4,020 nt of DNA from a virus (Duplodnaviria > Heunggongvirae > Uroviricota > Caudoviricetes), in IMG/VR virus record IMGVR_UViG_2698536454_000011; one strand, written 5' to 3'. Position 1 is the stretch's first letter, and each line of letters starts with the position of its first letter. The notes below the pieces were generated by a model. It was not told where the DNA came from. It ran no database searches and saw nothing but the letters and a program-made list of their open reading frames with translations. Both the position numbers and the translations under genes were made by a program. This document shows positions 1-4,020 of the stretch, piece by piece.

Positions 1-1014
1 CACATCCCACGCCTTGCGCTGTGTGGTCAGGTACGCATTACAGGTGATGCGCGGCTCCGTGCCGCCAAAACCGTCCGGCACCGACTGGTCGCAGTACTGG
101 CCGATGACATACAGCGCCCATTTATCCACATCTGCCGCACCAAGACGTTTCCCCATGCCGTAGCGCGGATGGGTCAGCATATCCCACAGACACCAGGCCA
201 TGTTGTTGCTGTATGCTGGCTTAAACGTTCCGTCCCAGATACCGCTGTATTGCCGCGTCTGCGGGTTATAGTTCGACGGCACCTGCAGAATGCGCCCGCG
301 AAGATGATAATTACGGCTCACCTGCTGGCTGCCGAACTGCTCCGAGTCCACCTGCACGCCGACCAGTGCCGTGTTCGGGTAGCACTGTTTCACATCGATA
401 ATTTCGGTGTATGACGACCAGAGCGTTTTGTTCTGCAGCTGGTCTGTGGTGCTGTCCGGCGTCATCCTGCGCATCCGGATATTAAACGGGCGCGGCGGCA
501 GGTTATCCACCACCACCGAGGCCAGATACTGTGAAGTGGTTTTGCCCTTAATGGTGATGTCTTTTTCTGTCACCCAGCCACCGTTACGTTGTATCTGAAC
601 CAGCAGGCGGACTTCCGACGGATTCCTGTCCCCCTTTGAGGTGGTTTCCACCAGTGCCTGCACACCGAAGGTAAAGCGCAGACGGTCGATATTTGCAGAC
701 GTGATGGTCCGGGTGATCGGCGTGTCATATTTCACTTCCGTACCCAGCACCGTCTCGGAGCCGGAGGATTCAAATCCCTCCGGCGGAGTCTGCTCCTGCT
801 CACCTGCCCGGAACACCACCGTGACACCGGAGATGTTGGTATTCCCCTCAGTGTCCAGCACCGGCGTATTGTTCAGCAGCACGCTTTTTAATCCATCCAC
901 CGGACCTTCAATCGGCCCTTCACTGATGGCATCAATCACACTCAGCAACTGCGTGGATTTCAGGTTGTCCTTCGCTTCGCGCGGGGTATGCCCCTTACTG
1001 CTGCCTTTACCCAT
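1..1014 (-). CDS. J: Tail tip / host-specificity central fibre protein J, N-terminal 338 codons; gene continues beyond position 1 of the window (3' end not in window)
   Basis: Minus-strand frame starting at ATG (plus-strand 'cat' at 1012-1014) reads MGKGSSKGHT..., and the frame is open to position 1, where it reads ...NNMAWCLWDMLTHPRYGM...DGFGGTEPRITCNAYLTTQRKAWDV. Both stretches match lambda gpJ as I recall it. Absent from the ORF track only because it has no stop inside the window. GGAG lies 8 nt upstream of the ATG. Confidence 0.95.
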   Translation of the reverse strand, partial: MGKGSSKGHTPREAKDNLKSTQLLSVIDAISEGPIEGPVDGLKSVLLNNTPVLDTEGNTNISGVTVVFRAGEQEQTPPEGFESSGSETVLGTEVKYDTPITRTITSANIDRLRFTFGVQALVETTSKGDRNPSEVRLLVQIQRNGGWVTEKDITIKGKTTSQYLASVVVDNLPPRPFNIRMRRMTPDSTTDQLQNKTLWSSYTEIIDVKQCYPNTALVGVQVDSEQFGSQQVSRNYHLRGRILQVPSNYNPQTRQYSGIWDGTFKPAYSNNMAWCLWDMLTHPRYGMGKRLGAADVDKWALYVIGQYCDQSVPDGFGGTEPRITCNAYLTTQRKAWDV

Positions 1015-1022
1015 TCGTCATG

Positions 1023-1026
1023 CTCC
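1023..1026 (-). promoter_or_regulatory. Shine-Dalgarno (GGAG) for J
   Basis: Plus-strand 'ctcc' at 1023-1026 gives GGAG on the minus strand, 8 nt upstream of the J ATG at 1014. Confidence 0.55.
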
Positions 1027-1036
1027 ATAAACGACA

Positions 1037-1056
1037 AAACCGCCCGGAGGCGGTTT
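1037..1056 (-). terminator. Perfect 8-bp stem / 4-nt loop hairpin in the I-J spacer, followed on the coding strand by a T-rich tract; candidate attenuator, RNA-stability or partial intrinsic terminator element
   Basis: Plus-strand 1037-1044 'aaaccgcc', loop 1045-1048 'cgga', 1049-1056 'ggcggttt' (exact reverse complement). On the minus strand this reads AAACCGCC-UCCG-GGCGGUUU followed by UGUCGUUUAU and then the J ribosome-binding site. Confidence 0.35.
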
Positions 1057-1074
1057 CACATAAAACATTTTGCA

Positions 1075-1722
1075 TCAGCGACCAATCACCACAACCTGAC
1101 CACCGTCCCCTTCGTCTGCCGTGCTGATCTCCTGAGAAACCACCCGCGACCCCACACGCATTTCACCGTACAGAACAGGCAAAACATTGCCCTGAGCAAC
1201 CATGTTATCCAGTGAGGAAAAATAGGTGTTCTGTTTGCCGTTATCTGTACTGGCTGCCGTGGACGTCCTGGCTTTCGGTGCCAGCATCTGCGCCACACCG
1301 CCCAGGATCATACTGGCCCCTGCCGCATACATGCCCGATACAGCCGCGGCACCCAGCCAGCCCACAGGGTTCCACCATGCCACCGCAATCAACGCCGCCC
1401 CCAGCACCACCTGAAACACACCGCCACTTTTAGCTCCCGCCAGACGCGGCACGATATGGATCACGGCACCATTTGCCAGCGGCTCATTAAGACGGGCAGA
1501 TAATTCGGTTTCACCTGCATCACGCCCGGCAATGCGCACCTGATACCAGCCGTCATTCAGTTTCTGACGAAACGCCGGGAGCTGTGTGGCCAGCGCCCGG
1601 ATGGCTTCGGCCCCCGTTTTCACACGAAGGTCGATGCGGCGGCCAAATCGTTGCAAATCCCCGTAAAGGCAGATGCGTGCCATGCCCGGTGACGCCAGAG
1701 GGAGTGTGTGCGTCGCTGCCAT
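1075..1722 (-). CDS. I: Tail tip assembly protein I (215 aa); ubiquitin-like N-terminal region ending in Gly-Gly, hydrophobic Gly/Ala-rich middle segment, conserved C-terminus
   Basis: ORF-track protein MAATHTLPLASPGMARICLYGDLQRFGRRIDLRVKTGAEAIRALATQLPAFRQKL...TDNGKQNTYFSSLDNMVAQGNVLPVLYGEMRVGSRVVSQEISTADEGDGGQVVVIGR matches lambda gpI at the N- and C-termini as I recall it. Position is between K and J as in lambda. Start lies inside the 3' end of K. GAGG is about 12 nt upstream of the ATG. Confidence 0.93.
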   Translation of the reverse strand: MAATHTLPLASPGMARICLYGDLQRFGRRIDLRVKTGAEAIRALATQLPAFRQKLNDGWYQVRIAGRDAGETELSARLNEPLANGAVIHIVPRLAGAKSGGVFQVVLGAALIAVAWWNPVGWLGAAAVSGMYAAGASMILGGVAQMLAPKARTSTAASTDNGKQNTYFSSLDNMVAQGNVLPVLYGEMRVGSRVVSQEISTADEGDGGQVVVIGR

Positions 1723-2363
1723 TTGTCGGTATACCTCTCTCGTTTGCTCAGTTGTTCAGGAATATGGTGCAGCAGCTCGCCGTCGCCGCAGTAAATAGCG
1801 GCATGATTCGGCACCGATGAACCAAAACAGCACAGCAGCACATCGCCCGGCTGCGCCGCTGACAACGGCACCTGATACAGCCCTGTGGCCTCCAGATTAT
1901 CCAGATAGAGATTCTGACCGTTACGCCACCAGTCATCCCCGCGATGAAAATCCGGCATCTCAATCCCCGCCAGATGGTAAGCATCCCGGAACAGCGTGTA
2001 ACAGTCCGTCACCCCGTGCTCAAAGCGCCGCCCGGTGAGATGCGGCACACAGCGGAATTTATGAATCTCACCCCGGCAGACCAGCCACCACGGCAAATCA
2101 CTCTGCACCTGCAGCCGCCGGTCAGCCTCACTCAGCCAGGGCAGACCACCGGGGTGGCTGTGGACCAGCGCCACAATCTCACCCTGCATTTCTGCCCGCA
2201 GCCAGTCTTCCGGCGACATACGGAAATACGCCTCCGGCTCACCGGAGATATTCACGCAGGGGAAATATCTTTCCCCCTCCGGCGTGCTTACCACGAAGCC
2301 GCACGACTCCGCTGGCGCACATCGCCGGGCGTGCGCCAGAATCGCTGATTCTGTCTGTGTCAT
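1620..2363 (-). CDS. K: Tail tip assembly protein K, long form (247 aa): N-terminal JAB/MPN (JAMM) metalloprotease-like domain plus C-terminal NlpC/P60 cysteine-peptidase-like domain. The classically annotated 199-aa lambda K corresponds to an internal start at 2219
   Basis: ORF-track protein MTQTESAILAHARRCAPAESCGFVV...ALVHSHPGGLPWLSEAD...GVTDCYTLF...PNHAAIYCGDGELLHH... From M49 (MSPEDWL...) onward it matches lambda gpK as I recall it. The stop overlaps I by 103 nt, the same geometry as lambda. The 5' boundary is uncertain between 2363 and 2219. Confidence 0.85.
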   Translation of the reverse strand: MTQTESAILAHARRCAPAESCGFVVSTPEGERYFPCVNISGEPEAYFRMSPEDWLRAEMQGEIVALVHSHPGGLPWLSEADRRLQVQSDLPWWLVCRGEIHKFRCVPHLTGRRFEHGVTDCYTLFRDAYHLAGIEMPDFHRGDDWWRNGQNLYLDNLEATGLYQVPLSAAQPGDVLLCCFGSSVPNHAAIYCGDGELLHHIPEQLSKRERYTDKWQRRTHSLWRHRAWHASAFTGICNDLAAASTFV

Positions 2364-2368
2364 GGGAT

Positions 2369-3067
2369 TTACTGCGAAAGTTTGTTAATGGAAAGGAAGC
2401 CGCCAAAGTTGCCGACATTATTGCGAAACTTACAGCCACTCAGGCATTTGCTGCATTTATCCTTCGTGATATCGGACGTCGGCTGGTCATATTCATCCGC
2501 GACCGCCGGACCGTTATAACCGCACTCATCACCGCGATAGGTCCAGGTGCAGGTATTAGCCAGCATGATGCGCCCCGGAAAAACGGCACCATCCGTTTCA
2601 GTCGGCGTGGACAGTACAAAGGAGGCACTGACCGCGCTCAATTCGCTGCACTGCTCGATGCGCCAGCGGCTAATCACCTCCTGCTCCGGATCGGCGTCGC
2701 TGTTTCCGTTGACGAAGTTCACCGCATCCAGAAAACGGGCGTAAACCTTACGCCGGACCACCGTTCCGCCGACCAGACTCTGCAGATCTTCCGCCATCCC
2801 GGTGACCATACCGTGCAGGTTAGAAACCGTCAGTGTCGGACGGGCAGCACTGCCCTTGCCGTTCAGTTCAAATCCTGTCCCCTGAATGGGGTATGCCTGA
2901 TACTGCCGCCCCTGCCAGGTAACCGGCTCACCTTTTTCGTTCTGCTCATTACAGAAAAAATAACGTTCACCACCGACCTCTGTCAGATCGATTTCCCAGA
3001 GCACCACCTGGGCTGACTGAGTGAGGCGTGTCGTCTCATGATGTGTTTCCTGTGGAATATCCTGCAT
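2369..3067 (-). CDS. L: Tail tip assembly protein L (232 aa), with C-terminal cysteine cluster (iron-sulfur cluster-binding in lambda gpL)
   Basis: ORF-track protein MQDIPQETHHETTRLTQSAQVVLWEIDLTEVGGERYFFCNEQ...ANTCTWTYRGDECGYNG...KDKCSKCLSGCKF...LSINKLSQ matches lambda gpL as recalled, with the same length. GGAGG is 5 nt upstream of the ATG. Position is between M and K. Confidence 0.95.
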   Translation of the reverse strand: MQDIPQETHHETTRLTQSAQVVLWEIDLTEVGGERYFFCNEQNEKGEPVTWQGRQYQAYPIQGTGFELNGKGSAARPTLTVSNLHGMVTGMAEDLQSLVGGTVVRRKVYARFLDAVNFVNGNSDADPEQEVISRWRIEQCSELSAVSASFVLSTPTETDGAVFPGRIMLANTCTWTYRGDECGYNGPAVADEYDQPTSDITKDKCSKCLSGCKFRNNVGNFGGFLSINKLSQ

Positions 3068-3072
3068 CAGAG

Positions 3073-3077
3073 CCTCC
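3073..3077 (-). promoter_or_regulatory. Shine-Dalgarno (GGAGG) for L, overlapping the M stop codon
   Basis: Plus-strand 'cctcc' at 3073-3077 gives GGAGG on the minus strand, 5 nt upstream of the L ATG (3067). The M stop TAG occupies 3077-3079. Confidence 0.6.
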
Positions 3078-3406
3078 TATGCCACGACCTGTTCAAAATC
3101 TGCCGTTATGGTTACCCACAGCGCCCCCACGCTTGCCGACCATTTACGACAAACCACCCTGATCGGTTTCCAGTCATAAGGTGGCGTCCACTGAAATGCA
3201 CGGACGCCACCGTGCCGTTCCAGAAAGGCTTTTAAAGATGGGTGTTCACATTTACGAACACGTATCGTCACGCTGTAAGTCGACAACTGGTTATTCAGTC
3301 CCGCCGCACGACGCTGTTCATAACCATCGCCCAGCTTCACTGTCACCACTTTCGGCTCTGATACCACATTCATATCCGGGCGCACTTTCCAGTGAAACGT
3401 CTCCAT
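3077..3406 (-). CDS. M: Tail tip assembly protein M (109 aa)
   Basis: ORF-track protein METFHWKVRPDMNVVSEPKVVTVKLGDGYEQRRAAGLNNQLSTYSVTIRVRKCEHPSLKAFLERHGGVRAFQWTPPYDWKPIRVVCRKWSASVGALWVTITADFEQVVA matches lambda gpM as recalled, with the same length. Its ATG overlaps the H stop codon (TAATG). Confidence 0.95.
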   Translation of the reverse strand: METFHWKVRPDMNVVSEPKVVTVKLGDGYEQRRAAGLNNQLSTYSVTIRVRKCEHPSLKAFLERHGGVRAFQWTPPYDWKPIRVVCRKWSASVGALWVTITADFEQVVA

Positions 3407-4020
3407 TACCGATATGCTCCACTTAACCGACCACCATCACGGGCCTGCTGTTGCATAAAGTCCGCTGCCGCTTTTTTCCCGAGGTCATAAACCGCCTTCA
3501 GGGCAGCCGGACCTATCTGCCCGTTCGTGCCATCGTTATTGATCTCGATGTTGTACTGCGGGGAAAACATCGCCATACCTGAACCCCCAATATCCGCCAC
3601 AACCCCCAGCTTACCGTCAGCACCACGACGCAATGGCAAAATGGCTTCAGGTCCCGCTTCCCCCATCACACCCGCGCCTTTTGCAAAAGCAAAAAACGTC
3701 GGACGGTTAACCACCGTGCCACTGTAACGACTCAAATCAGCAGACTGATAAATCCCCCCATTGGCATTCAGGGAAAGGCTGCTGAGATCAAATCCCAGTA
3801 CACTGCCAATCCCTTTTATCGATTTCATCATGGTTGCCTGCGCCAGGATTTTCGCCATATCTGACAGCACAGAAGAGGTGAAGGATTTGAAATTGAGTTT
3901 GCCGGTAGTGACAAAAGTTGTAAGCGTCGTCTCAGCACCGTCTGGCAGATCCTGAAATTCCTGAGAGAATAGTGGACACCAAATATGGTGGACGCTATCC
4001 ATGAAATCATTAACCGCAGT
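3406..4020 (-). CDS. H: Tail tape-measure protein H, C-terminal ~204 codons; gene starts beyond the window end (5' partial)
   Basis: The minus-strand frame is open from the window edge (4020) to the TAA at 3406-3408. The track ORF 3406..4002 starts at an internal Met; the codons upstream (...TAVNDF-MDSVHH...) contain no stop. Position immediately upstream of M, and the Gly/Ala/Ser-rich C-terminus, are consistent with a lambda-type tape-measure protein. Confidence 0.9.
   Translation of the reverse strand, partial: TAVNDFMDSVHHIWCPLFSQEFQDLPDGAETTLTTFVTTGKLNFKSFTSSVLSDMAKILAQATMMKSIKGIGSVLGFDLSSLSLNANGGIYQSADLSRYSGTVVNRPTFFAFAKGAGVMGEAGPEAILPLRRGADGKLGVVADIGGSGMAMFSPQYNIEINNDGTNGQIGPAALKAVYDLGKKAAADFMQQQARDGGRLSGAYR

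Follow-up and report, generated by a model that had tools for sequence, protein, structure and literature searches.

[quoted passage not shown] In the pLS20 conjugation operon (conAn) intra-operon terminators were argued to limit spurious transcription, and both their function and their bypass were shown experimentally (PMC8191782). At the junction of the tail genes I and J, GenBank records annotate a (putative) rho-independent terminator in the phages N15, phiKO2, HK639 and mEp234, and the hairpin that occupies this junction in lambda-type phages carries no annotation in the four lambda-type records we checked. Here, we provide a structural and comparative analysis of this lambda-type element. 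It shares with the P22/L late operon and with pLS20 the position of an intrinsic terminator, here a putative one, between the genes of a long operon of which the legitimate transcription is terminator-resistant.

The I-J spacer of a lambda-type tail module

The window, i.e. the whole stretch of 4,020 nucleotides that was analysed, contains a lambda-type tail module on the minus strand in the order H'-M-L-K-I-J', and all long ORFs lie on this strand. The module is composed as follows:

3406-4002+, minus strand: H', C-terminus of the tape-measure protein (ORF and match to lambda tail protein)
3077-3406, minus strand: M (ORF and match to lambda tail protein)
2369-3067, minus strand: L (ORF and match to lambda tail protein)
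1620-2363, minus strand: K, with JAB and NlpC/P60 domains (ORF and Pfam)
1075-1722, minus strand: I, tail assembly protein I, 215 aa, stop codon UGA at 1077-1075 (Pfam Lambda_tail_I, E=1.3e-24; annotated as I in lambda-type phages)
1015-1074, minus strand: I-J intergenic spacer, 60 nt, the sole sizeable non-coding gap of the module (ORF coordinates)
1-1014, minus strand: 5' part of J, the tip attachment/host-specificity protein, first 338 residues, AUG at 1014-1012 (Pfam FNIII-A_GpJ, E=1.5e-42; J in relatives)

The translation of J starts with MGKGSSKGHTPRE. A previous sequence-only reading of this DNA had described the I-J spacer as the only intergenic gap, and the coordinates agree with it, the 60 nt of this spacer comparing with 9 nt between M and L, 5 nt between L and K, a single base (3406) shared by H and M, and an overlap of 103 nt between K and I (1620-1722), which are read in different frames. 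The K ORF (1620-2363, minus strand) encodes 247 aa with Prok-JAB from residue 3 followed by NlpC/P60, and K is annotated in the lambda record J02459 at 14276-14875 with 199 aa only; the start of K in this old record is probably placed too far downstream.

A similarity search with positions 850-1250 of the window matched 106 phage records, showing 99% identity to Escherichia phage PhiR47_1. Lambda 15271-15669 is 95% identical to this I-J region, and the lambda I-J gap, likewise of 60 nt (15445-15504), carries no annotation. This 95% identity together with the established biology of lambda would place the locus in a late operon driven by pR'; the window itself contains no pR', qut or Q.

Structure and terminator score of the hairpin

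An inverted-repeat search returned two arms of 8 nt, 1037-1044 (AAACCGCC) and 1049-1056 (GGCGGTTT), which are 100% complementary and separated by 4 nt, confirming in structure, position and strand the perfect 8-bp stem with a 4-nt loop reported before at 1037-1056. On the mRNA (minus) strand the hairpin reads AAACCGCC-UCCG-GGCGGUUU followed by UGUCGUUUAU, resulting in a spacer of the layout UGA-N18-AAACCGCC-UCCG-GGCGGUUU-UGUCGUUUAU-GGAG-N8-AUG. Read as a terminator, the same strand gives GAAA-CCGCC-UCCG-GGCGG-UUUUGUCGUUU, with the following elements:

1049-1056, minus strand: 5' arm of the hairpin, AAACCGCC, with the GC core CCGCC at 1053-1049 and AAA as A-tract; 2 of 8 columns variable in 70 sequences
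1045-1048, minus strand: loop UCCG, closed by C-G and forming a C(UNCG)G tetraloop (plus strand CGGA); read from the sequence
1037-1044, minus strand: 3' arm of the hairpin, GGCGGUUU; invariant in 70 of 70 distinct lambda-type sequences
1029-1039, minus strand: U-rich tail UUUUGUCGUUU, the first three U's of which also pair with the A-tract; T-tail score 3.81
1023-1026, minus strand: Shine-Dalgarno sequence of J, GGAG, 8 nt 5' of the AUG; read from the sequence

The stem consists of eight perfect pairs (five G-C and three A-U) with a 4-nt loop and falls within the range of ~5-14 bp typical of the GC-rich stems of intrinsic terminators, and the predicted fold of the hairpin alone has an energy of -13.2 kcal/mol. 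UNCG tetraloops are known for their stability, and the C(UNCG)G tetraloop is present on the mRNA strand only. The tail has the character of a U tract, though an interrupted one, with four contiguous U's and 8 U's among 11 nt. The stem begins 18 nt past the stop codon of I and lies in an intergenic position co-directional with all six genes. From the general behaviour of terminators the release point of the RNA would be expected within about 1036-1032. At the position of the J Shine-Dalgarno sequence, a ribosome-binding site is annotated in the lambda h434 imm21 record.

We scored every candidate composed of a hairpin and a tail on both strands by a discriminant d, the sum of the hairpin energy per length and a weighted T score, using a formula that reportedly goes back to d'Aubenton-Carafa 1990 and serves here for ranking only. 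With d=19.3 the I-J site is the sole candidate of the window, both strands considered, for which the discriminant is positive, and the best of 40 dinucleotide shuffles of the 4-kb strand scored 6.5, none reaching this value. The perfect 8-bp inverted repeat taken alone is not unusual, the window containing five perfect repeats of at least 8 nt within 40 nt; it is the combination of hairpin and U tract that is unusual. Two longer perfect inverted repeats lie in coding sequence, at 3180-3211 in M (10 nt, 12-nt loop) and at 2312-2339 in K (9 nt, 10-nt loop), and scanning of both strands found no U tract after either of them.

The lambda equivalent of the site has a d of 18.6 and ranks 4th of 11 on the lambda late strand. 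Within the same scheme, the lambda sites which we take from their map coordinates to be tI, the rexB-end terminator, tR2 and t_oop score 16.6, 19.0, 25.0 and 29.6, respectively. The I-J site scores in the range of tI and the rexB-end terminator and qualifies as an intrinsic terminator by the discriminant. It resembles these and other lambda terminators in its architecture of hairpin plus U tract and in its comparable discriminant, but whereas those end transcription units or are controlled by N, the I-J site lies inside an essential late operon and in front of an essential gene. The sequence-only reading had taken the interrupted U tract as an argument against a strong terminator. This argument falls away as three U's had been counted as part of the stem, while the standard reading gives the tail UUUUGUCGUUU and a score like those of tI and the rexB-end terminator, and the equivalents in N15, mEp234, HK639 and phiKO2 are annotated rho-independent terminators with an uninterrupted U6-7. 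A terminator scanner run on the window did not flag the I-J site, which its stated rules explain by an extension of the stem through three G-U pairs, leaving only 4 T in the tail window; our own scan for hairpin plus tail recovers the site as well as the known terminators of lambda. The antisense strand, which is without such a U tract, scores negative in every family, and we rejected a bidirectional or antisense terminator.

Further late gaps of lambda (J02459, plus strand) contain sense terminator-like hairpins, namely 6101-6114 (D-E), 7164-7179 (E-FI), 18920-18935 (J-lom) and 19613-19632 (after lom), with d = 22, 10, 9 and 40, which makes the I-J site a member of a series of such hairpins that punctuates the late operon.

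Conservation among lambda-type relatives

Our comparison of lambda-type relatives covers 70 distinct sequences from 113 loci, in which the variability is distributed as follows:

Stem arms: 2 of 16 columns variable, 0.12 deviating sequences per column
Loop: 3 of 4 columns variable, 7.25 deviating sequences per column
Upstream spacer: 18 of 18 columns variable, 4.5 deviating sequences per column
Third codon positions of I and J: 86-92% variable, 5.4-6.8 deviating sequences per column
Codon positions 1+2: 32-73% variable, 1.1-1.4 deviating sequences per column

The stem is less variable than codon positions 1+2, and one of the two variable columns of the 5' arm is a C->U change that retains a U-G pair. 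The loop occurs as UCCG, UGCG (lambda), UCAG and CCCG, and in the tail the first four U's are invariant, with G5 and G8 varying to A. The hairpin persists where the rest of the spacer is unrelated. In a Citrobacter werkmanii prophage (L106), of which I and J are both 66% identical, AACCGCC-TCCG-GGCGGTTTTGTCGTTT is intact within an unrelated spacer of 71 nt, and the L303-type spacer retains hairpin and tail in unrelated surroundings. In a Citrobacter meridianamericanus prophage (L090) the gene sodC sits between the I stop codon and the hairpin, the latter still being located directly 5' of J. This sodC (L090:2149-2863) is encoded on the opposite strand and specifies a periplasmic Cu/Zn superoxide dismutase of 174 aa (Pfam Sod_Cu, E=9e-35). 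Other insertions between I and J are morF in phi80 and inserts of 246-336 nt in BP-4795 and in the locus L108; the I-J junction is a moron insertion hotspot.

The exact 22-mer CCGCCTCCGGGCGGTTTTGTCG is found once per contig in 80 viral contigs and in four different I-J spacer contexts, and the other hairpins of the lambda late operon are unrelated to it in sequence, so that we rejected a REP/BIME-like dispersed repeat. It also occurs in two unrelated contexts, L295:6779-6800 (minus strand) and L362:1258-1279 (plus strand), the former separating an endolysin-like from an HNH-like gene in a GC-rich phage contig and the latter lying 3' of a small phage gene in another contig, each followed by a Shine-Dalgarno sequence and a start codon. 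Convergence on an optimal small terminator is the likely origin of these two occurrences, with transfer as the alternative, and they fit a generic terminator design.

The scan of genome contigs returned mostly lambda control-DNA contamination and added little diversity. The exact lambda I-J sequence was present in low-coverage contigs of Neobacillus, Pseudomonas, Shewanella, Bradyrhizobium, Chromatium and Amycolatopsis assemblies (L091-L105, L113-L116, L120), some of them of ~48.4 kb, and its presence in these unrelated assemblies is almost certainly contamination by lambda control DNA. E. coli ECMA0423, CP178302 (L119, L121), shows scattered indels, a hairpin degraded to GGGACCGCCTCCCGGCGGCTGTG and an apparent identity of I and J of 34-48%; the I-J indels of ECMA0423 look like sequencing or assembly error and not like real divergence.

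Equivalent elements in distant phages

A sense hairpin of different stem sequence followed by a U tract is present at the I/J junction of N15, phiKO2, HK639, mEp234, the BP-4795/Stx type, Tls, Klebsiella P1 and C119. Five of these read:

N15: GCCACC-UCCG-GGUGGC-U7; terminator annotated at 15307-15330
phiKO2: GCCACC-UUGC-GGUGGC-U7; terminator annotated at 15298-15320
mEp234: GCCACC-UUCG-GGUGGC-U6; terminator annotated at 14409-14430
HK639: GCACCC-AAUU-GGGUGC-U7; terminator annotated at 19137-19160
BP-4795/Stx-phage type: ACAGGCACCC-UCCG-GGGUGCCUGU-(C/U)GU5

The annotated terminators of N15, phiKO2, HK639 and mEp234 agree with the element in the window in junction, strand, orientation, a GC stem of 6-8 bp, a 4-nt loop, the spacing from stem to AUG and a U tract leading directly into the J ribosome-binding site, UAUGG(A/G)G. 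They differ from it in the stem, which is GCCACC/GGUGGC or GCACCC/GGGUGC instead of CCGCC/GGCGG, and in the uninterrupted U6-7 with a d of 29-43 compared to 19 in the window. Tls, Klebsiella phage P1 (Webervirus) and C119 (Rogunavirus), of which the J proteins are ~31-33% identical, have a sense-only terminator-like hairpin at I/J with d = 20, 36 and 24; an independent terminator scanner also calls the sites of Tls and P1, and a promoter scanner found no usable promoter before J in these two phages. Ten of the 15 junction types sampled carry hairpin and U tract. The hairpin is missing at I/J in ES18, MagusPhagus, Lana, Koroua and a Xenorhabdus prophage, where the two genes overlap or are separated by 0-14 nt, and the element is therefore dispensable.

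Within single families the variation is too sparse for significance, and the cross-family comparison alone is informative. In the N15 type 99.3% of cells pair, all changes being one-sided and wobble-compatible, and 133 of 500 shuffles reach the observed value (not significant); the BP-4795 type shows one true C-G<->U-A compensation with one mismatched intermediate (74 of 500 shuffles, not significant). Across families 96.3% of cells pair compared to 82.0% in shuffles, the covariation score is 0.546 compared to 0.243 (for both, 0 of 500 shuffles) and 4 of 8 pairs change on both sides, in an alignment that is loop-anchored, of equal length, fitted to the structure and built from related blocks, the shuffle statistics thereby overstating independence. 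Slid-partner controls of this cross-family alignment are 33-56% paired. From these sequences we take at least three or four independent compensated differences across families to be evident. Every one-sided stem change results in a G-U pair in the sense RNA where the antisense RNA would have an A-C mismatch, and the selected structure therefore lies in the late mRNA. Conservation of the stem with compensatory changes in related phages, which had been put forward earlier as a check on the hairpin, is thus seen both in the 70 sequences and in the cross-family comparison.

The equivalents come in several arrangements. In BP-4795 the I-J spacer of 246 nt (L123:955-1200) opens with a strong terminator on the antisense strand, TCCCGCAG...CTGCGGGA followed by T7 (d=25.9), and ends with a sense terminator; this arrangement recurs in L130 and in many Stx-phage loci (L212-L252). 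The ~170 nt between the two terminators could be a small antisense transcription unit or an sRNA, and a search of the long BP-4795-type spacers against Rfam gave no match. In mEp234 (L129:455-503, 1113-1164) near-duplicate cassettes of terminator, U tract and ribosome-binding site precede both I and J, reading AAACCACC-UACG-GGUGGUUU-UUUUAUGGGGGCAGCAUG and GCCACC-UUCG-GGUGGC-UUUUUUAUGGGCGCAAUAUG, and in phiKO2 (L418:264-308) terminators flank I on both sides, after a 'putative moron'. The cassettes of these two phages suggest a portable terminator-RBS module. UGUCG directly follows the stem in three families, i.e. in the lambda type (UUUUGUCGUUU, 1032-1036), Klebsiella P1 (UUUUUGUCGUG, L415 ~930-936) and BP-4795 (UGUCGUUUUU, L123 ~1150), a recurrence which may be chance.

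Discussion

The I-J element has the anatomy of a terminator and is specific for the sense strand, its stem and proximal U's are under purifying selection, and it has compensated equivalents including canonical terminators. We consider it probable that the hairpin and the U-rich tail constitute a factor-independent (intrinsic) terminator or attenuator on the late-mRNA strand, positioned between the tail-assembly genes and J. Among the options listed by the sequence-only reading, a partial terminator or attenuator is still the best class of explanation, and a processing site has found no support. RNase III requires dsRNA of ~20 bp or more, and the stem has 8 bp, or 11 bp with the G-U extension, the extended lower helix showing no covariation; the covariance models of Rfam returned nothing at 1015-1074, and the only two matches, located in other parts of the window (E = 3.7 and 6.7), are at chance level. 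A leader-peptide attenuator using a 16-codon ORF across the hairpin was rejected as well. This ORF is in frame with I and J, the lambda-type spacer having a length of 59 to 61 nt; of 44 distinct lambda-type spacers only 21 have its AUG, no Shine-Dalgarno sequence precedes it, and other families do not have this ORF. Folding of the spacer predicted no alternative antiterminator structure.

According to the terminator model, a polymerase transcribing the U-rich tail would pause at the weak rU:dA hybrid, the GC stem with its C(UNCG)G cap would fold in the RNA exit channel and the transcript would be released a few bases into UUUUGUCG. As judged from lambda biology, Q-modified polymerase from pR' would read through and J would be made in lytic growth, and polymerase lacking the Q modification would stop before the 3.4-kb J and the accessory genes beyond. 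The transcription stopped in this way may comprise leak-through, spurious intragenic starts and moron promoters in the prophage, and transcripts ended or trimmed at the hairpin would gain an exonuclease-resistant 3' hairpin. Termination is probably partial, and possibly weakened by the ribosome finishing I, as the U tract is interrupted and the hairpin lies only 18 nt past the I stop codon. In a Q-antiterminated operon any effect on the stoichiometry of J should be small during lytic growth. A promoter scan of the I-J spacer found none, and a search of the literature for 3'-end mapping, in vitro termination or read-through data on the lambda I-J site found none either.

We know of no late antitermination in the virulent T1-like phages, and the terminator at their I/J junction sets this junction apart from the P22/L late operon and from pLS20. 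Our prediction that virulent relatives lack the terminator was refuted by the hairpins of Tls, P1 and C119 in front of the essential J, and the stopping of only non-antiterminated polymerase is therefore not the whole story, so that we widened the explanation. In Tls and C119 the stem begins 6 nt past the I stop codon; this distance amounts to 16-19 nt in lambda, N15, mEp234, HK639 and Klebsiella P1, and to 21-30 nt in L303, L106 and phiKO2. For lambda tR2, termination in vivo depends on the distance from a stop codon, rising from <10% at 5 nt via 0.12-0.8 at 17-18 nt to a maximum beyond ~27-30 nt, as the hairpin is kept from folding by the terminating ribosome (PMC4824070). Set against these values, the distances suggest that the I/J terminators may be partly gated by translation of I. 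To a wider proposal, according to which the I/J terminator would be a translation-gated checkpoint across lambda-type tail modules, with the ribosome finishing I occluding the hairpin and letting polymerase pass and an uncoupled polymerase stopping before J, we assign a small chance. If true, it would explain why virulent phages without known antitermination tolerate a terminator before an essential gene and why the element is retained even where Q makes the terminator nearly invisible.

Other roles of the hairpin have to be weighed against termination. It might mainly be a stabiliser of mRNA that, once the long J message has been cut endonucleolytically, stops 3'->5' exonucleases and thereby protects the upstream tail-assembly message, or that stabilises the J segment from its 5' side. 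For its size the hairpin is very stable (-13.2 kcal/mol with the C(UNCG)G tetraloop), it adjoins a 3.4-kb gene presenting a large target for RNases, and it is present in temperate and virulent phages alike, independently of antitermination. Such a barrier needs no U tract, yet a U tract follows the stem directly in every family with its first four U's being invariant in the lambda type, and I is a low-abundance assembly protein with no obvious need for more upstream message. We regard stabilisation as the main role as unlikely; the role is compatible with termination and the two may coexist. That the hairpin is without a function of its own, being either a terminator left behind by a former moron insertion or the joint at which recombination produced a mosaic boundary, would be in line with the insertions accepted by the junction (sodC in L090, morF in phi80, 246-336 nt in BP-4795 and L108) and with similarity ending, in several comparisons, right at the 5' border of the hairpin. 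A relic would decay, however, whereas in the 70 distinct sequences the stem varies less than non-synonymous codon positions and compensated equivalents persist from lambda to T1-like phages of which J is only ~31-33% identical, rendering a hairpin without function very improbable.

The close association with J raises the possibility that the element serves the translation of J, with the hairpin preventing long-range pairing of the J ribosome-binding site and the U-rich tail acting as an enhancer, or, in a variant, with a lower helix between the U-rich stretch after the I stop codon and the J Shine-Dalgarno sequence being unmasked by the ribosome finishing I. The cassette of hairpin, U tract, Shine-Dalgarno sequence and AUG travels with J, adjoining it despite the sodC insertion; at least five unrelated sequences are found upstream of it in the N15 type, the distance from stem to AUG is 16-24 nt in most families, and in minimum free energy folds of lambda-type spacers UUUU is paired with GGAG. 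In BP-4795, Tls and P1, however, a stretch of variable sequence separates the hairpin from the J start, at a distance of 44-53 nt. For the lower helix, 95.5% of pairing is observed and shuffles average 95.6%, with 697 of 1000 attaining the observed value. Variants that break a pair, A-C and C-A, occur frequently; the L303-type spacer has no such helix, and neither L106 nor other families have a counterpart of the same form. Lacking covariation and recurrence and frequently broken, a lower helix sequestering the J Shine-Dalgarno sequence was rejected as a conserved feature, and we hold a primary role in J translation to be doubtful to a high degree.

As a summary, the sequence comparisons indicate that the I-J element is a real element of a known kind, the intrinsic terminator type, being under selection at a deeply conserved position, its function as a terminator being the putative part. 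The I/J site is no accident of one phage: its hairpin and U tract are under purifying and compensatory selection from lambda via the N15/HK97-like and Stx tail modules to virulent T1-like phages. Even virulent phages retain a putative terminator ahead of an essential gene. Annotations of lambda-type prophages could include an explicit I/J terminator feature, and in lambda engineering insertions into the I-J spacer should not be regarded as neutral. The site offers a well-defined and easily mutated test case for the roles of intra-operon terminators, the candidates being insulation of the prophage from spurious transcription, attenuation of a large distal gene and gating of transcription by translation.
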